Source: a virus (lineage: Duplodnaviria > Heunggongvirae > Uroviricota > Caudoviricetes). Taken from it: a DNA stretch of 10,057 nt. The translations under genes and the position numbers were made by a program. The notes under the pieces are model-generated. The model worked only from the letters and a program-made list of their open reading frames with translations. It had not been told where the DNA came from and did not search any database. Location: positions 1 to 10,057 of the IMG/VR virus record IMGVR_UViG_2734482778_000005. One strand, given 5' to 3'. Numbering within the stretch: position 1 is the stretch's first letter; each line of letters opens with the position of its first letter. Of this stretch, positions 1-8,517 are shown in pieces.

Positions 1-105
1 CCAGAAAATGTTGTCCGGCGTGCGCCACTGATCGCCCACTTCCTTCAGTTCATGGGCTGGTTTGTTCCGCAGTTCCACCAGCGCCTGGCAATATTTATTA
101 CTCAT
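1..105 (-). CDS. N-terminal 35 codons of a gene that continues beyond the window start; possible phage Dam-type DNA N6-adenine methyltransferase
   Basis: Minus-strand ATG at 105-103 overlaps the TAA stop of the upstream gene (TAATG). Reads MSNKYCQALVELRNKPAHELKEVGDQWRTPDNIFW with no stop to the window edge. Codon usage is host-like (CTG, GCG, CCG). The D-x-W-R-T-P motif near the N-terminus resembles phage Dam-family methyltransferases; this is recalled, not searched. Confidence 0.4.
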   Translation of the reverse strand, partial: MSNKYCQALVELRNKPAHELKEVGDQWRTPDNIFW

Positions 106-599
106 TAAGCCCCCACGTAATTCCCTGACAGATACCACTCATCACCCGATACAGCGCGCTTGCTGCTTTTCCGTAAACACTGCTCACGACGCGCCAGAAA
201 ATTGTTTCGTTCTGGCTGGGAGTGGCTTTCACGGAATGCCGCCATCCACACCGTTGCAGCACGACGGTATAAGCCCCTGGACTCCAGTTCTTCCGCCTGG
301 CGGGTCAGGCACAAAATCACCCGGGGATCGTTAGTGCCGACATAGAAATTGCGCACAGGTCTGGTTTCACGAACTGGTTGTGGTTCCGGCTCCTGCGCTC
401 TCTCAGTCAGGCGTGGGAAATGTCTGCGTGTATCTCCTTCACAACGGTGAGCCACACGCCCACTCTGACGTAACTTGCTTGCTGACTGCAGAACGCGCTG
501 CCGTGAGTAACCTGCAAAAGCATCCGCAATGTCTCCGGAAGTACACCCCGGATGGGCTTCAATGAATTTCTGAACGTCATTTAACAGACTCATGATCAC
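105..599 (-). CDS. Hypothetical prophage protein, 164 aa, with a C-terminal PerC-like motif (LESRGLYRRAATVW); possibly YfdN-like
   Basis: Complete ORF on the minus strand. Its ATG at 599-597 overlaps the stop of the O-like gene (ATGA). The C-terminal half carries a motif recalled from the PerC/Pch regulator family. The length equals what I recall for K-12 YfdN, but that is not verified. Confidence 0.65.
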   Translation of the reverse strand: MIMSLLNDVQKFIEAHPGCTSGDIADAFAGYSRQRVLQSASKLRQSGRVAHRCEGDTRRHFPRLTERAQEPEPQPVRETRPVRNFYVGTNDPRVILCLTRQAEELESRGLYRRAATVWMAAFRESHSQPERNNFLARREQCLRKSSKRAVSGDEWYLSGNYVGA

Positions 600-1588
600 C
601 CCCTGAATCCTGCCGGGATCTGGCTGTAGTCCACGTTGTCGTAACTGGCTTTGAAGTACGGGTCTTCACGTTTTTCTGTGTGCGTGCTGACGGACGGCGA
701 TAAGCGCAGGGAAAGCTCATCCCATTTTTCCCGCAACTTCGACGGGCTGAGCACGTTACGGCACCAGAACGGATCGCGGCTGACGCGGCTGTACATCTCG
801 CAGATTTGTTTGTGAGTACGACCATCCTGCACACACATCAGGCGAATTTCGTTTGCCCATGCTGTCCAGTTCGGTTCTTTGGGACGAACCACCTCGCCGT
901 CACATTCGGCGGCCTGCTCGTACAGGGCGATGATTTTTTTCCAGAGCCACTGTGCGCAGGTCAAATCATCCTGCGTTCCCCACTGGCGCTTTTTAGGGCT
1001 GAATACAACCGCATCAGGATGGCGAGTTAAAAACTCCTGTTCAGCCGTTTGCGTGTCCGGTTGCGAAGCGTCCGGACGAGAAGAGGTTTTATTCTCTGTA
1101 GTAATCTCTGTTGTATTCTCTGTAAGATCATTGGGCCATTTTGACCCGATGACAGCGTGTCGTTTTGAACCAATGGATCGTGTCATTTTGCGCCCATCCA
1201 TCAGGTCACTTTGACCCGATGGAGAAGTGCATTTTGACCCGATGGATTCGTTCACTTTGACCTCTTCTAAAAGCTCACTTTCATAGTTGATCGTGTAGAA
1301 GTTGGTCATGTCACGCTTCGATTTATTGAGTTGCTCGCGACGCAAAACCCCAAGTGATTTCAGGCTTGCAAATGTGCGTTTCAGAGTGGACTCTGACCAG
1401 AACGGAAACTGCTCCAGCCACTGTTCTGTCGTGTTATAAACCCAGCGAATTCCGCCATGCTCAGTGCCTGAATTCGTTTCATTCAGCCAGTAATGAAGCT
1501 GCTGCAACACAATTGCCTCATTCAGACCAATACGGCATGCAAGATCACGATTTATCACAATGGGCTGGGATGTCATTAACAGGCTCAT
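596..1588 (-). CDS. Lambdoid replication initiator (O-like), 330 aa, with the replication origin embedded in its coding sequence
   Basis: ATG at 1588 is preceded by GAGGT with a 5-nt spacer. The direct repeats at 1139-1264 fall in the middle of the ORF and encode the repeated SIGSK peptide, as iterons do in lambda O. Downstream gene is coupled by an ATGA overlap. Confidence 0.85.
   Translation of the reverse strand: MSLLMTSQPIVINRDLACRIGLNEAIVLQQLHYWLNETNSGTEHGGIRWVYNTTEQWLEQFPFWSESTLKRTFASLKSLGVLRREQLNKSKRDMTNFYTINYESELLEEVKVNESIGSKCTSPSGQSDLMDGRKMTRSIGSKRHAVIGSKWPNDLTENTTEITTENKTSSRPDASQPDTQTAEQEFLTRHPDAVVFSPKKRQWGTQDDLTCAQWLWKKIIALYEQAAECDGEVVRPKEPNWTAWANEIRLMCVQDGRTHKQICEMYSRVSRDPFWCRNVLSPSKLREKWDELSLRLSPSVSTHTEKREDPYFKASYDNVDYSQIPAGFRG
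1081..1264. repeat. Putative phage origin: six direct iterons at about 23-bp spacing (core TTTTGACCCGATGGA, starting near 1139, 1163, 1186, 1209, 1232, 1255) next to an AT-rich tract (1081-1138) carrying short TTCTCTGT repeats
   Basis: Direct reading of the sequence: four near-identical and two degenerate copies of the TTTTGACC core, phased at 23-24 bp, abutting an AT-rich stretch. This is the classic iteron plus AT-rich lambdoid ori-within-O layout. Confidence 0.65.
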
Positions 1589-1757
1589 GACCGACCTCTA
1601 TTTCCCTGAATTTACGACGAAACTGTTCGAGCGGACTGAAGCATTCATGTTCATAGCCTTCACGGAGGTAGATAACCCGTTGTGTTTCCGGCTCCCAACG
1701 AATGACTCTGACGGGCACTCCGTAGTGATCTTTGAACCAGCGGTTAACTTGTCGCAA
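1545..1757 (-). CDS. Alternative small ORF (70 aa, TTG start); mutually exclusive with most of 1598-1936
   Basis: TTG start is preceded by AAGGAGA with a 7-nt spacer. The product ([40 protein letters not shown]...) has a globular-looking composition. It overlaps the O-like start by 44 nt and overlaps the 112-aa ORF in another frame. Confidence 0.3.
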
Positions 1758-1936
1758 AGGACTGTCTCCTTCTGCCGGTTGAAATCACCCACAGCCCACT
1801 CTGCAAAGCTGTGGGTTACAATTTCCCTGTCACCTGGTACATTCACTGCATAGCAATACTCCACCTTCGCTTTTCCACCCGGTACAGGAAGCGCAATCAG
1901 TTGCGAGCGACGGTAGTGTGTTGTTAAACTGTTCAT
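1598..1936 (-). CDS. Hypothetical protein, 112 aa, between the CII-like and O-like genes
   Basis: ATG at 1936 overlaps the stop of the upstream CII-like gene (ATGA). GGAGA lies 9 nt upstream. The TAG stop at 1600-1598 sits 9 nt before the O-like ATG, inside its ribosome-binding site, which is typical operon spacing. The C-terminal half is S/T/N-rich and less protein-like. Confidence 0.45.
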
Positions 1937-2517
1937 GCGTTAGTTTCTCCACAACCAGAAGCAATCGACGCCACGACGCCCGGAGCTGCACACTCGCGGG
2001 CGTTACTCTTTTCCGGCGCACAAAAAACACGAAATAACAGTGTTAAATGCTCCTGCCACTTCGCCATTACTTGGTAGCTGTTCTCTTCGATTTGCTCACG
2101 CTCAGCCTGGTCAATAACTCCATCAGCAGTTGCCTTGCGTAAGTACTGGGAATGCTTGCCAATCCATTCTATTGACTCCATCAGCCGCTGATTAATGTCA
2201 CCATTGTCAATGTCATCAATGACCACCAGCGGCACAAACACCCCATTACTACGACGGGCTATTGCATCTGTTACATGCCTGGTACCACTGGCATCCTGTA
2301 AAACCATGGCCCACTCAAGTGGAAAAATTTGATCCCCACCGCTACGCAGTCTGTTATGCAATTGATCTTTTGCTGGGGTGATATCATCAGATTTATACAA
2401 ACCAAGAATTTCTGCTGCTTCCTCATAGCCATGAGGTAAATCAGCAATCGTTCTTCGTATTGCTGCCACCAGCCATGCTGGTTGTTTATCAACTTTCCAT
2501 TCAGGTTCTTTACCCAC
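1933..2517 (-). CDS. Phage CII-like regulatory protein (CP76/YdaT-type), 194 aa, GTG start
   Basis: GTG at 2517-2515 is preceded by GAGGA with a 7-nt spacer. It sits immediately downstream of the Cro-like gene (27-nt gap), in the cII position. The central region ([10 protein letters not shown]...[25 protein letters not shown]) resembles CII/CP76-type regulators from memory. Confidence 0.7.
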
Positions 2518-2544
2518 GGTTAATTCCTCATTTCTGTGGTGTTT

Positions 2545-2742
2545 TTATGCCGCAGCACTGTTAGTCTTTTGATATAAAGACACGTCAACTTTCAGTTTCC
2601 CGTTAGTAATTTTTTCTAACTGGTACGCTCGGCCTTCAGGAATAATCTCAGGCCACTCTGAAACAGACGGATGCTTAATACCTAGGGCTTCGGCGGTTTT
2701 ACAAACTCCGCCGAAATAATTAATCACGTCGGATTTCCGCAT
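2545..2742 (-). CDS. Cro-like small HTH regulator (YdaS/Cro family), 65 aa
   Basis: ATG at 2742 is preceded by GGGAGA with a 5-nt spacer. It is the first gene leftward of the operator cluster and divergent from the cI-like gene. The HTH-like segment is GGVCKTAEALGIKHPSVSEW. Confidence 0.8.
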   Translation of the reverse strand: MRKSDVINYFGGVCKTAEALGIKHPSVSEWPEIIPEGRAYQLEKITNGKLKVDVSLYQKTNSAAA

Positions 2743-2773: not shown

Positions 2774-2840
2774 AATGTAGGATATCCAACATGCCAATGT
2801 CAAGAATCCTACATGGGCATGTGGTAGGATTGCCTACATG
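2774..2840. promoter_or_regulatory. OR-like operator region: three 18-bp imperfect palindromes (2775-2792, 2797-2814, 2822-2839) overlapping a leftward PR-like promoter (-35 TTGACA at 2803-2798, -10 TACATT at 2779-2774, minus strand) and the cI start
   Basis: Direct reading. The sites are ATGTAGGATATCCAACAT, ATGTCAAGAATCCTACAT and TGGTAGGATTGCCTACAT, sharing the half-site ATGT(A/T)GGAT. The promoter is TTGACA, 18-nt spacer, TACATT, aimed at the cro-like gene. Confidence 0.6.
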
Positions 2841-3491
2841 ATGAACATGAGTGATCGTATTCGCCAAAGGCGAAAAGAACTGAACCTGACACAACAAGCA
2901 CTGGCTGATTTGACTGGTGTGAACCGTGTCACGGTTACTGGATGGGAAAAGGACGACTACCAACCAAATGGAGCCAACCTTCAAGCCCTAGCCAACGCAC
3001 TTAAATGCGATCCTCTGTGGCTTGTTAGCGGAAAAGGCTCGCCTGAACCAAAGATAAATCTAAAACCTGAAATATTCGCAGTTAAAAAAGTCCCCCTCAT
3101 CTCGTGGGTTCAGGCGGGTTCATGGACAATGACGGAGCCTGGTGTCAGGAAAGAAGATGCTGAAGAGTGGGTTTATACTACCGCCCTTGTATCAGAAATG
3201 GCATTTGCACTACGGGTCCGTGGTGATTCAATGACCAATCCCCTCGGCTCACCATCGATACCAGAAGGTTCTATCGTTATCGTAGAGCCAGATATTATTG
3301 ATACAGAGTGTATTAACGGAAAAATCGTTGTTGCCCATATCAATGGTGGGCAAGAAGCGACACTCAAAAAATTTGTTGAGGACTGGCCGAACAGGTATCT
3401 CGTCCCACTAAATCCTAACTATAAAACTATTGAATGCGGTGAGAACTGCAGAATAGTTGGTCTTGTCAAACAAGTAATAATGGATTTTTGA
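2838..3491 (+). CDS. cI: cI-like prophage repressor: N-terminal XRE-type HTH plus C-terminal S24 (LexA-like) autopeptidase domain, 217 aa
   Basis: HTH segment LTQQALADLTGVNRVTVTGWE. A candidate Ala-Gly cleavage site (VQAGSW). The catalytic Ser sits in the GDSM context and a Lys in ATLKKF. The start overlaps the third operator; alternative ATGs lie at 2841 and 2847. Confidence 0.9.
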   Translation: MMNMSDRIRQRRKELNLTQQALADLTGVNRVTVTGWEKDDYQPNGANLQALANALKCDPLWLVSGKGSPEPKINLKPEIFAVKKVPLISWVQAGSWTMTEPGVRKEDAEEWVYTTALVSEMAFALRVRGDSMTNPLGSPSIPEGSIVIVEPDIIDTECINGKIVVAHINGGQEATLKKFVEDWPNRYLVPLNPNYKTIECGENCRIVGLVKQVIMDF

Positions 3492-3511
3492 CACATCTTC
3501 CTCACTATCGC

Positions 3512-3537
3512 AAAACCGGGGTATCCCCGGTTTTTTT
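3512..3537 (+). terminator. Rho-independent terminator after cI (stem AAAACCGGGG / CCCCGGTTTT, 3-nt loop, T7 tail)
   Basis: Perfect 10-bp GC-rich inverted repeat followed by TTTTTTT, 21 nt after the cI stop. The A-tract upstream makes it potentially bidirectional. Confidence 0.7.
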
Positions 3538-3553
3538 ATGAGCCTATCTTTTT

Positions 3554-3607
3554 ATGTAGGATAACCAACATAAACTCTTGACACTCACATGTTGGATATC
3601 CTACATT
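3554..3607 (+). promoter_or_regulatory. OL/PL-like region: two 18-bp operators (3554-3571, 3589-3606) bracketing a rightward promoter (-35 TTGACA at 3578-3583, -10 TACATT at 3602-3607)
   Basis: The operators ATGTAGGATAACCAACAT and ATGTTGGATATCCTACAT share the OR half-site. The promoter has the same TTGACA, 18-nt spacer, TACATT geometry as PR. Confidence 0.6.
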
Positions 3608-7206: not shown

Positions 7207-7470
7207 ATGGCAACTTTGACAAAAAAGGAACAGGCATGGTTGAGCGAATTACAGAACGTTCTTGATCGCTGCCCGTCACCGAAAAAAATTGGTTTTTACA
7301 CCATTGGCGATAAAAACATTTACCTGTATGACCTACGCCGCATGGATGAAATCATGGAGGCTCTTGATAATCGTTCGTCAATGGATTGGTGTGTTGCTGT
7401 CCATGATATGAATGCCGGATTTGAAGAAAAGATTTTGTTCCCCTCGTCAGTTGAAAGCACAGCGGGTTAA
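7207..7470 (+). CDS. Hypothetical phage protein, 87 aa
   Basis: ATG at 7207 is preceded by AGGAG with an 8-nt spacer and starts 1 nt after the upstream TGA. The ORF-track start at 7045 is an in-frame extension overlapping the upstream gene. Confidence 0.6.
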   Translation: MATLTKKEQAWLSELQNVLDRCPSPKKIGFYTIGDKNIYLYDLRRMDEIMEALDNRSSMDWCVAVHDMNAGFEEKILFPSSVESTAG

Positions 7471-7480
7471 GGACTAACAC

Positions 7481-7945
7481 ATGACAACGTTCACCGACAA
7501 AGAACTGATTAAAGAAATCAAAGAGCGCATAGGCAGCCTGCCAGAATTAATCGAAGGCATGGAAGTTTCCATTGATGTAAGCACTTGTGATGCTGATTTA
7601 GGTAATCGCTATTTCGGCACCGTCACCGAGGCGTTAGAACTTGATACAGCCAAGAATGGTTACATCCTCCTGGTTCAGGACGCAGAGCCAAACTTCGATG
7701 TAAATGGCAACTCTCCGGGAACTCCGGATAGTTGGATAAGCTGTAGTGATCGAATGCCTGAAAAGGGCCAGAACGTGCTTATTTCGGTGAATTTCGATAG
7801 CTCTCTGGTTGAACCGCTAATATGCTCCGCACGCTATACCGGAAGCACCTTTCGGCGCGGAGATGCAACGATTAAGCCGGGTAATGGTATTGAGCAAGCA
7901 ACTCACTGGATGCCGCTACCGGAACCGCCGCAGGAGGTGAAGTGA
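7481..7945 (+). CDS. DUF551-family phage protein, 154 aa
   Basis: AAGGA with a 7-nt spacer. The C-terminal segment (WISCSDRMPEKGQNVLI ... HWMPLPEPP) matches the DUF551 pattern as I recall it. Confidence 0.7.
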   Translation: MTTFTDKELIKEIKERIGSLPELIEGMEVSIDVSTCDADLGNRYFGTVTEALELDTAKNGYILLVQDAEPNFDVNGNSPGTPDSWISCSDRMPEKGQNVLISVNFDSSLVEPLICSARYTGSTFRRGDATIKPGNGIEQATHWMPLPEPPQEVK

Positions 7946-8517
7946 TGAACAACTTAATGATCGACCTTGAGACGATGGGGAAAAATAAGGATGCACCGAT
8001 CGTTTCCATTGGCGCGGTGTTCTTCACTCCAGAAACCGGAGACATCGGACAAGAATTCTATACGGTTGTTAGCCTGGAAAGTGCTATGGGGCAAGGAGCT
8101 ACACCTGACGGCGATACCATCCTGTGGTGGTTGAAACAAAGCCCTGAAGCACGAGCTGCAATCTGTATTGATGATACTTTGTCGATCAGCGATGCTCTCT
8201 CAGAACTAAATCATTTCATTAACCGGCACGCAGCCAATACGAAATATTTAAAAGTCTGGGGTAACGGGGCCACCTTCGACAACGTAATTTTACGTGGAGC
8301 TTATGAGCGAGCAGGACAAATCTGCCCGTGGGCATACTGGAATGACCACGATGTACGCACGATCGTTACGCTTGGGCGTTCCATCGGATTCGACCCCAAA
8401 ATGGACATCCCTTTCGATGGCGAACGGCACAACGCCCTAGCCGATGCCCGTCATCAGGCAAAATATGTTTCCGCTATCTGGCAGAAATTAATTCCTGCCA
8501 CCAGCACAGAATTATGA
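7945..8517 (+). CDS. DEDD-type (DnaQ-like) 3'-5' exonuclease, 190 aa
   Basis: Exo I motif IDLETMG, Exo II region WGNGATFDNVIL and Exo III HNALADARH are in the expected order. ATG at 7945 has AGGAGG with a 7-nt spacer; the GTG at 7942 in the ORF track is too close to that site. It overlaps the upstream stop (TGATG). Confidence 0.8.
   Translation: MNNLMIDLETMGKNKDAPIVSIGAVFFTPETGDIGQEFYTVVSLESAMGQGATPDGDTILWWLKQSPEARAAICIDDTLSISDALSELNHFINRHAANTKYLKVWGNGATFDNVILRGAYERAGQICPWAYWNDHDVRTIVTLGRSIGFDPKMDIPFDGERHNALADARHQAKYVSAIWQKLIPATSTEL

Follow-up and report, generated by a model that had tools for sequence, protein, structure and literature searches.

A YmfL-family, phage-186-CII-like regulator gene whose tail is co-encoded with an ECS003-type antisense RNA of OOP-like layout

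The locus and its pair of regulators

The window considered here is the whole 10,057-nucleotide (nt) stretch of the Caudoviricetes record IMGVR_UViG_2734482778_000005, and its elements of interest are two regulator genes, one Cro-like and one of the YmfL family, at the head of the leftward early operon, together with a small RNA encoded antisense to the 3' end of the second gene. The region represents the module for immunity and early regulation of an Escherichia coli lambdoid prophage. A 2-kb test stretch of the window is 100% identical to E. coli chromosomes, and similar early regions are found in phages, e.g. mEp460. The early operon, on the minus strand, runs in the order Cro-like, YmfL-like, YmfM-like, DUF4222, O-like replication protein and PerC-like; it is divergent from a CI/LexA-like repressor gene, with three palindromic operators in between. 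In the same chromosomes PGAP calls, in this order, a LexA-family protein, a Cro/CI-family regulator, a 'YmfL family putative regulatory protein', DUF4222, a hypothetical protein (the O-like one) and a PerC-family regulator. The features central to the argument are listed below, each with its basis.

2545-2742, minus strand: Cro-like repressor gene, 65 residues, first gene of the operon (P22_Cro, YdaS_toxin, phrog_409)
1933-2517, minus strand: YmfL-family, phage-186-CII-like regulator gene, 194 residues (NF041471, phrog_101, PF06892, fold)
1936-2022, minus strand: C-terminal tail of the latter, codons 166-194, co-encoded with the antisense RNA (predicted disorder, codon diversity, identity to e14)
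About 1934-2012, plus strand: small antisense RNA, ~75-79 nt, ECS003-type, with OOP-like layout (ECS003 identity, covariance model R1, fold)
1937-1971, plus strand: 5' stem-loop of the RNA, a GCGN/N'CGC closing helix around the anti-Shine-Dalgarno sequence UUUCUCC (RNAalifold, pair counts)
1975-2004, plus strand: terminator hairpin GACGCCCGGAG-CUGCACA-CUC-G-CGGGCGUU, followed by UACUCUUUU (covariation)
1901-1930, plus strand: sigma-70 promoter of the RNA, with -35 TTGCGA at 1901-1906, an 18-nt spacer and -10 TG-n-TAAACT at 1925-1930 (conservation)
1598-1936, minus strand: ymfM homologue, 112 residues (96% identity to K-12 YmfM/SfiC; phrog_1170 over its full length)

An earlier note, made from the letters of this DNA alone, had placed a Cro-like and a CII-like gene of the YdaS/YdaT type at the head of the leftward operon. 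The gene structures stand as it described them: the minus-strand early operon begins with the 65-residue Cro-like gene (ATG start), which is separated by a 27-nt gap (2518-2544) from the 194-residue gene (GTG start), and the latter has the C-terminal end that had been quoted. Profile matches, along with PGAP annotation at the same positions in E. coli genomes with 100% identical DNA, mark both open reading frames as real genes.

The larger protein scores 181.2 bits (cut-off 90) against the NCBIfam equivalog model YmfL (NF041471), its residues 17-165 aligning to model positions 2-143 of 143; it matches phrog_101, a 'CII-like transcriptional activator' family, over its full length (E 3e-62) and is 56% identical to YmfL of the K-12 e14 prophage. 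Its match to PF06892 (Phage_CP76) is marginal and partial (28.8 bits against a threshold of 26; residues 67-153); K-12 YmfL reaches 48.9 bits over nearly the entire model, and PF06892 is precomputed for almost all of 120 listed homologues. The AlphaFold2 model has an all-helical core (residues ~10-165; predicted local distance difference test, pLDDT, 85-97), beyond which residues 166-194 form the tail. A Foldseek search of the PDB returned phage 186 CII chains (6VPE, 6VLI) as all of its best five matches (probability 0.99-1.00, E 7e-4 to 2e-2, target TM-score 0.38-0.58, ~154 columns), with noise after them, and a PDB sequence search using the family profile found nothing. The resemblance to CII/CP76 regulators proposed earlier is thereby borne out, in the passing PF06892 score and in the identity of the fold matches. 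The proposed resemblance to YdaT is not: PF06254 (YdaT_toxin) gives no match at E<=1, hhalign against K-12 YdaT returns a probability of 0.5%, and no YdaT structure is named among 50 listed fold matches, so that membership in the YdaT family was rejected. Membership in the lambda CII family was likewise rejected, since Phage_CII turned up neither in the Pfam search at E<=1 nor among the fold matches.

The smaller protein matches PF14549 (P22_Cro) with 77.3 bits (gathering threshold 30.2) and passes PF15943 (YdaS_toxin) marginally, with 31.6 bits (gathering threshold 30); it also matches phrog_409, a family of transcriptional regulators, aligns to YdaS of the Rac prophage with 33% identity across 43 residues, and is called 'Cro/CI family' by PGAP in genomes with identical DNA. 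It thus scores above threshold and is encoded by the first gene of the operon, divergently from the repressor gene across the operators, as befits a P22_Cro/YdaS-type Cro-like protein. Hence the YdaS half of the YdaS/YdaT designation holds for the Cro-like partner, whereas the larger protein is not of the YdaT type. On the strength of the profile, fold and hhalign results we assign the pair, with high confidence as to family, to a Cro protein and a 186-type CII analogue of the YmfL rather than the YdaT type. In itself such a Cro/CII pair is routine and has already been named by NCBI's pipeline.

An antisense RNA gene in the tail-coding DNA

The C-terminal tail of the larger protein had been thought unusual and possibly an added extension. 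Comparison of homologues speaks otherwise: most of them, across Enterobacterales (Escherichia, Klebsiella, Salmonella, Citrobacter, Enterobacter, Kosakonia and others), carry the same tail motif, followed by (V/A)(V/L)A and then by variable ends (...GETNA, ...CMEK, ...CMEKSA or ...RVEN). The tail lies outside the NCBIfam model, the match to which stops at residue 165, and is predicted to be disordered (pLDDT < 50 for residues 169-194); its last 22 residues and the DNA encoding them are identical to those of e14. DNA identity to e14 rises from ~60% to ~100% exactly 66 nt ahead of the ymfL stop codon and is sustained through ymfM. Synonymous codon diversity is ~0.5 in the ymfL core, and falls to 0.26 in codons 166-172 and 185-194 and to 0.13 in codons 173-184. 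The residues of the tail can be read off elements of the nucleic acid: PEKS is the complement of a U-tract, a 12-residue stretch encodes a hairpin, and (G/M)E(T/K) is the ymfM Shine-Dalgarno sequence GGAGAA; these three elements therefore determine most of the tail sequence (...GETNA). The evidence shows selection on the tail DNA to fall mainly on an antisense RNA gene.

All of the tail-bearing loci fold into a GC-rich hairpin at this position. Some homologues have other tail peptides (DAGELQLPASRRV, NAPGCSPERSVA, DAPVCGTGASGA, DASSVQPLASGA), which seem to derive from the same DNA by frameshift or compensating change, and frame-shifted tails such as DAGELQLPAS, NAPGCSPERS and DAPVCGTGAS retain the hairpin. 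At a Pantoea locus (L067) ymfL stops ahead of the hairpin (...FCASEK*), and the hairpin and the upstream RNA sequence are kept as intergenic DNA. YmfL homologues with a short ...APDEVARPPD end have no RNA element, and the covariance model described below found no ECS003-type RNA at such loci or in phage 186. At least 120 IMG/VR contigs contain the 24-nt core of the hairpin without a mismatch, and in 80 of the 80 that were fetched a YmfL core lies directly upstream, with 24-100% identity; the hairpin, the RNA and ymfM thus move together as a module, following YmfL cores that diverge widely (to as little as 24% identity, in viral contigs). Two side observations concern the same stretch. Some database 'YmfL' proteins (homologues P0003, P0022 and P0092; locus L036) are longer through a frameshift near the hairpin, and their ends (...SVQLRASW...EKLTHEQFN...) share the frame of a spurious 66-residue open reading frame at 1830-2030 on the minus strand. 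There is also a mosaic junction inside ymfL relative to e14 (window 1868-2003; L002 about 7757-8170), the ~100% identity ending at the O-like start codon.

Complementarity of the RNA extends over the last ~25 codons of ymfL and over the ymfM Shine-Dalgarno sequence and start codon. Its structure was derived from an alignment (A3) of 49 distinct sequences from 60-odd genomes, which is also the source of covariance model R1. RNAalifold finds two helices in it. The 5' stem-loop, in which UUUCUCC complements the ymfM Shine-Dalgarno sequence GGAGAAA, is 100% paired, and alignment columns 7 and 40 covary (UA 19, GC 10, AU 9, GU 7, UG 4). The 3' hairpin shows compensatory changes in 7 of 10 pairs, its variants including changes from GCCCG/CGGGC to GCCGG/CCGGC, GCCAG/CTGGC, GGCCCG/CGGGCC and GCCCA/TGGGC. 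When both helices are taken together, as a structure of 14 pairs, pairing extends to 98.4% of cells. The covariation score of 0.372 was reached by none of 500 column shuffles, which gave 0.164 +/- 0.010, and slid controls did not exceed 0.09. The pairing favors the plus strand, on which there are 60 G-U cells as against 6 on the ymfL sense strand, with 98.4% and 90.5% of cells paired, respectively. In the window the RNA (1934-2012) folds into the two stem-loops as its dominant minimum-free-energy structure, with a z-score of -3.3 and none of 200 shuffles equally stable; significance is confined to the RNA with its mapped ends, arbitrary windows of 61-111 nt giving unremarkable z-scores. Model R1 scores 92.9 bits in the window and 89.1 bits in e14, and Rfam 15 has no match at 1934-2012 even at E<=1. 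A further match to the ECS003-type model, at 7269-7344 on the minus strand (13.8 bits, E 0.14), is weak and probably due to chance.

The promoter of the RNA is embedded within the first 12 codons of ymfM. All of 45 distinct loci have TAnnnT as the -10 and TTGnnn as the -35, with an unchanging 18 nt between them, while the spacer itself is just 48% identical. The -35 takes the forms TTGCGG or TTGCGA (also TTGTGG and TTGCCG), followed after 18 nt by TAAACT, TAAATT, TACAAT or TACACT, and 4 nt past the -10 comes the complement of the downstream gene's start codon. These hexamers force the codons of ymfM: codon 4 is always TTA (Leu) or GTA (Val), and Gln12 is CAA in 45 of 45 loci, whereas the neighboring Leu13 uses seven different codons. 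TTA is a rare leucine codon in E. coli.

A transcript of this kind is on record from K-12. ECS003, antisense to ymfL and ymfM, was the most abundant cis-antisense small RNA candidate in that strain. A sigma-70 promoter is predicted for it, dense reads cover a block of 78 nt, Northern blotting gives a band of ~70 nt, and its level was constant across the tested conditions and in an hfq mutant (PMC3175480). The published sequence (CAUGCGUUAGUUUCUCCACAACCAGAAGCAAUCGACGCCACGACGCCCGGAGCUGCACACUCGCGGGCGU...) is identical over 70 nt to window positions 1934-2003, the transcript data being those for e14 of K-12. In the two RefSeq records that were examined (MG1655 and VG48B2) no non-coding RNA is annotated at the ymfL-ymfM junction. 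Our confidence in the existence and conservation of the RNA gene is high.

ymfM, the palindromes and the immunity region

The further features of the locus are as follows.

1545-1757, minus strand: DUF4222 gene, 70 residues, overlapping the 3' half of the ymfM reading frame in another frame (PF13973, 66.5 bits)
2514-2539: palindrome CCACGG-N14-CTGTGG over the ymfL Shine-Dalgarno sequence and GTG start, a candidate YmfL operator (leader conservation, motif counts)
1789-1814: second copy of the palindrome, CCACAG-N14-CTGTGG, inside ymfM codons 41-50 (motif counts)
2774-2840: operator/promoter region between the cro-like and cI-like genes (repeat search and promoter scan)
~2775-2792, 2797-2814 and 2822-2839: three 18-bp palindromes, half-site ATGTAGGAT (repeat search)
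2803 to 2774, minus strand: early promoter TTGACA-18-TACATT (promoter scan)
2838-3491, plus strand: CI-like repressor gene of the LexA-like, self-cleaving type, with HTH_3 and Peptidase_S24 domains (PF00717, 88.3 bits; PF01381, 57.8 bits; phrog_4)

The start of ymfM overlaps the stop of ymfL as ATGA. K-12 YmfM is the SOS-inducible division inhibitor SfiC, and the toxic activity of the e14 operon maps to ymfM (10.1101/2020.11.19.390815). In the VG48B2 genome, with DNA identical to the window, PGAP leaves ymfM unannotated and annotates DUF4222. The family has a conserved core of ~58-66 residues, at the end of which the protein stops at many loci; forms of 108-114 residues, to which those of the window and K-12 belong, continue by read-through into a C-terminal half that is rich in Ser and Thr, poorly conserved and overlaps the DUF4222 gene in another frame. 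DUF4222 is kept at most loci, and where YmfM is short the two genes are separate and do not overlap. In the shared nucleotides, identity is 64% when they are read in the DUF4222 frame and 44% in the YmfM frame, and of the substitutions that separate the window from K-12 in the overlap 4 of 4 are synonymous in the DUF4222 frame and non-synonymous in that of YmfM. The overlapping portion of ymfM evolves as an unselected frame. The 112-residue K-12 YmfM is probably a conserved domain of ~60 residues with a tail overprinted on the DUF4222 gene; on account of this overlap the published ymfM clone carries most of DUF4222 too.

The palindrome at the ymfL start was recognized from leader conservation. 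The 27-nt spacer and ymfL start have the consensus tAACCACAGaA..aaGgggttAaCCGTGGGTAA, in which AACCACAG at -24 to -17 is nearly invariant in 56 distinct leader sequences (the consensus base in at least 80% at every position), and the DNA further upstream, which comes from many different Cro-type genes, is unconserved. The family consensus of the palindrome is TAACCACAG-N12-CYGTGGGTA; it consists of inverted half-sites of 7-9 bp with centers ~21 bp apart, one of which lies on the regulator's own start codon. Its core, CCAC-N18-GTGG, has 2 matches in the window, where 0.04 would be expected. In 380 kb from 59 genome loci, the ymfL start accounts for 54 copies, ymfM nt +113 to +122 for 57 and all other places for 4, compared with 5.8 expected overall from base composition. 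The second copy fixes the codons of ymfM, with Asn as AAC, His as CAC, Ser always as AGY (or Arg as AGR where the residue differs) and Val as GTG. The helix-turn-helix region of YmfL is invariant in homologues; an invariant region of this kind fits an invariant target, and the palindromes are for this reason suspected to be YmfL operators, a low-to-moderate-confidence proposal drawn from sequence comparison. Two plus-strand candidates for an establishment promoter, TGtTTTTAT (2540-2548) and TACAAT (1817-1822), are not claimed here, their geometry being unlike that of 186 pE and the -10 not clearly conserved.

The three 18-bp palindromes between the divergent genes are overlapped by the early promoter in what is a classic layout of the OR1-OR3 kind, and PGAP names the CI-like repressor a 'LexA family protein'. 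Downstream in the operon the O-like gene (596-1588, minus strand) contains five tandem repeats of ~23 bp at 1129-1244, spaced 23-24 bp apart (consensus ...CATTTTGACCCGATG), which resemble origin iterons within a replication-initiator gene, as in lambda. After it lies a gene for a PerC-family (yfdN-like) transcriptional activator (105-599, minus strand), with a 4-nt overlap with the stop of the replication gene. On the plus strand, past the repressor, there are yfdP, yfdQ and yfdR-like genes, as in K-12 CPS-53. The single Rfam match in the window, Termite-leu at 3497-3579 on the minus strand (21.7 bits, E 0.55), is probably due to chance.

Functional interpretation and its alternatives

The closest parallel is e14, where ymfT-ymfL-ymfM and ECS003 show the same gene order and the same ATGA overlap. 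Against the moderate identity of YmfL (56%) stands the near-identity of YmfM (96%), and at the DNA level there is identity or near-identity over the final 66 nt of ymfL, the whole of ymfM and the first 70 nt of the RNA. Elsewhere the two loci differ: the Cro-like protein of the window is unrelated to e14 YmfT by BLAST, its repressor shares only 35% identity with YmfK, and this in the C-terminal domain only, the YmfL core is another allele with an insertion of 8-9 residues, and the sequence after the hairpin is UACUCUUUU in the window and CAUUACUUUCU in e14.

Phage 186 offers a parallel for the protein and its setting. There, CII, related through the profile and as the best fold match, is likewise encoded by the second gene of the early operon, and has a core with a C-terminal extension of ~25-30 residues beyond the domain; a small cell-division inhibitor gene comes next, so that the order apl-cII-fil-dhr parallels Cro-like, CII-like, division inhibitor and small protein here. 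This parallel is one of gene order only: homology of Fil with YmfM and of Dhr with DUF4222 was rejected, no BLAST alignment being obtained. The annotated CII site of 186 pE, ATGTTTG-N13-CAAACAT, begins at the cII ATG, a geometry similar to that of the palindrome on the ymfL start. However, the half-site is ATGTTTG in 186 and ACCACAG here, the proteins share just ~16% identity, and the ECS003-type RNA is missing from 186.

For the RNA, the parallel is lambda OOP. OOP is similar in size and position, both RNAs fold into two stem-loops, and in both systems the CII C-terminus is co-encoded with the RNA, the lambda t0 hairpin (AACGCTCGGTTGCCGCCGGGCGTTTTTT) lying within the last cII codons. As an OOP-type layout would have it, the locus combines an antisense RNA seen in K-12 (ECS003), a promoter of its own just past the stop of the CII gene and a terminator hairpin in the coding region. 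The lambda TTGC-N6-TTGC in cII codons 3-8 is placed similarly to the palindrome on the ymfL start. Yet OOP starts beside the O ribosome-binding site without covering it, whereas the RNA here covers the ymfM Shine-Dalgarno sequence and start codon; the CII proteins are unrelated; and RNase III-dependent action is shown for OOP only. It is established that OOP lowers cII expression by way of RNase III (Krinke and Wulff 1987). The YdaS-YdaT pairs of Rac and CP-933P, finally, also consist of a Cro-like gene followed by a CII-equivalent regulator, and the Cro-like proteins are related, but YdaT lacks profile similarity to the 194-residue protein; it is a POU-domain protein (PMC9986795).

Taken together, we consider it likely that the locus comprises a Cro and YmfL/186-CII-like module in which the tail DNA of ymfL is an OOP-like antisense RNA gene spanning the ymfL-ymfM junction. 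The RNA would be made constitutively in the lysogen, as ECS003 is in K-12, and would pair with early transcripts at the junction. By such pairing it could block translation of the division inhibitor YmfM and, as OOP does on cII mRNA, might trigger cleavage or decay of the ymfL 3' end and so lower YmfL. YmfL itself would be a short-lived activator of repressor establishment, like 186 CII, with the disordered tail as its putative instability determinant, and would probably bind the conserved palindrome on its own start codon. In an OOP-like or antitoxin-like function of the RNA, argued by analogy, our confidence is moderate.

Several observations weigh against this interpretation. The link to 186 CII is remote (16% identity, best Foldseek E 7e-4, TM-score 0.43-0.58), and an hhalign comparison between the family profile and the single 186 CII sequence gave a probability of 0.7%, which is uninformative, although the helix-turn-helix region was aligned in register. 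Activation, tetramerization and FtsH/RseP proteolysis are shown for 186 CII only; no convincing conserved -10 of an establishment promoter was found beside the palindrome. Homology to lambda OOP was rejected, the covariance model from 49 sequences giving lambda oop 6.8 bits (E ~10), and as the RNAs are thus not detectably homologous the analogy is one of layout. The U-tract past the hairpin (UACUCUUUU) is imperfect, and a simple terminator scan missed the hairpin because its stem is bulged. The mapped 5' end (1934) is just 4 nt from the -10, which leaves the exact transcription start (1934-1937) uncertain. Masking of the ymfM ribosome-binding site is a proposal of Shinhara et al. 2011 (PMC3175480).

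Of the other explanations, the one with the most in its favor, though we regard it as improbable, is that the tail is conserved as a protein element, a degron like the C-terminal 24 residues of 186 CII, with the hairpin and antisense transcript incidental. The earlier note had raised a degron as one possibility, and the idea has a homologous precedent, since the Pfam domain of 186 CII ends at residue 145 of 169 and the C-terminal 24 residues are an instability determinant: full-length CII is degraded by FtsH and RseP, and truncation at residue 145 stabilizes it with activity kept (PMC7708051). The predicted disorder of the tail and the conservation of DARECAAPG as amino acids in most homologues would fit. 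On the other hand, synonymous sites are ~4x less variable in the tail than in the core, lineages with other tail peptides keep the pairing through compensatory or frame-shifting changes, the hairpin of L067 is kept untranslated, the promoter is conserved and the RNA is detected in K-12. The tail may still serve as a degron alongside the RNA. A hairpin acting instead in the sense mRNA, as a processing or stability element or as a device for ymfL-ymfM translational coupling, is less probable still; it does fold on the sense strand too, ~40 nt upstream of the ymfM ribosome-binding site, but there, with G-U pairs turned into A-C, 65 cells would be unpaired, the antisense strand having only 11 such cells, the sense side has no U-tract, and what is observed is an abundant antisense RNA of ~70 nt that ends just past the hairpin and has a conserved promoter.

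It might also be held that the near-invariant block is a functionless recombination linker, a mosaic junction between phage modules, given the abrupt rise of e14 identity to ~100%, placed exactly 66 nt ahead of the ymfL stop, and the presence of the same 24-mer behind YmfL cores just 24-29% identical. This appears very unlikely, as it would leave unexplained the compensatory covariation, the strand-specific use of G-U pairs, the -10 and -35 conserved over a variable spacer, and the detected transcript. We give least credence of all to a YdaS/YdaT-type toxin-antitoxin pair made up of the Cro-like and 194-residue proteins. Such pairs have historically been annotated so, and the smaller protein has a marginal YdaS_toxin match; but the larger has no match to YdaT, K-12 ymfL overexpression causes no filamentation and the operon's toxicity lies with ymfM (10.1101/2020.11.19.390815), and the genes sit in a standard immunity region, which has three operators and a CI-like repressor gene transcribed divergently. 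The absence of filamentation and this setting are the reasons why the toxin-antitoxin reading is disfavored. The view in the earlier note that pairs of this kind are more likely Cro/CII analogues than toxin-antitoxin systems agrees with the profiles of both proteins and with their position heading the early operon.

The odd C-terminus of a whole protein family is accounted for by an antisense RNA gene on the opposite strand. It is a clean case of dual coding, amino acids and codons in two genes being set by an RNA structure, a ribosome-binding site and two promoter hexamers. An abundant small RNA candidate of K-12, reported in 2011 and lacking a context ever since, now belongs to a conserved family for which a promoter, a structure and a plausible role can be given; this role is analogous to that of OOP but reached by a non-homologous RNA for a non-homologous CII. 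For annotation, the RNA is absent from Rfam, and ymfM was missed by PGAP in a genome with identical DNA. An RNA over the ribosome-binding site of ymfM (sfiC) also supplies a testable mechanism for the silence of ymfM in lysogens. More tentatively, and with the odds rather against the whole holding together, ECS003-type RNAs may be a widespread, uncurated class, an independent OOP solution for the non-homologous 186-type CII, that would act at the same time as a type-I-like RNA antitoxin to YmfM, with the palindromes as YmfL operators bracketing the RNA gene. Were this true, a single control cassette, self-contained and horizontally mobile, would unite the lysis-lysogeny regulator with its antisense RNA and the division inhibitor.

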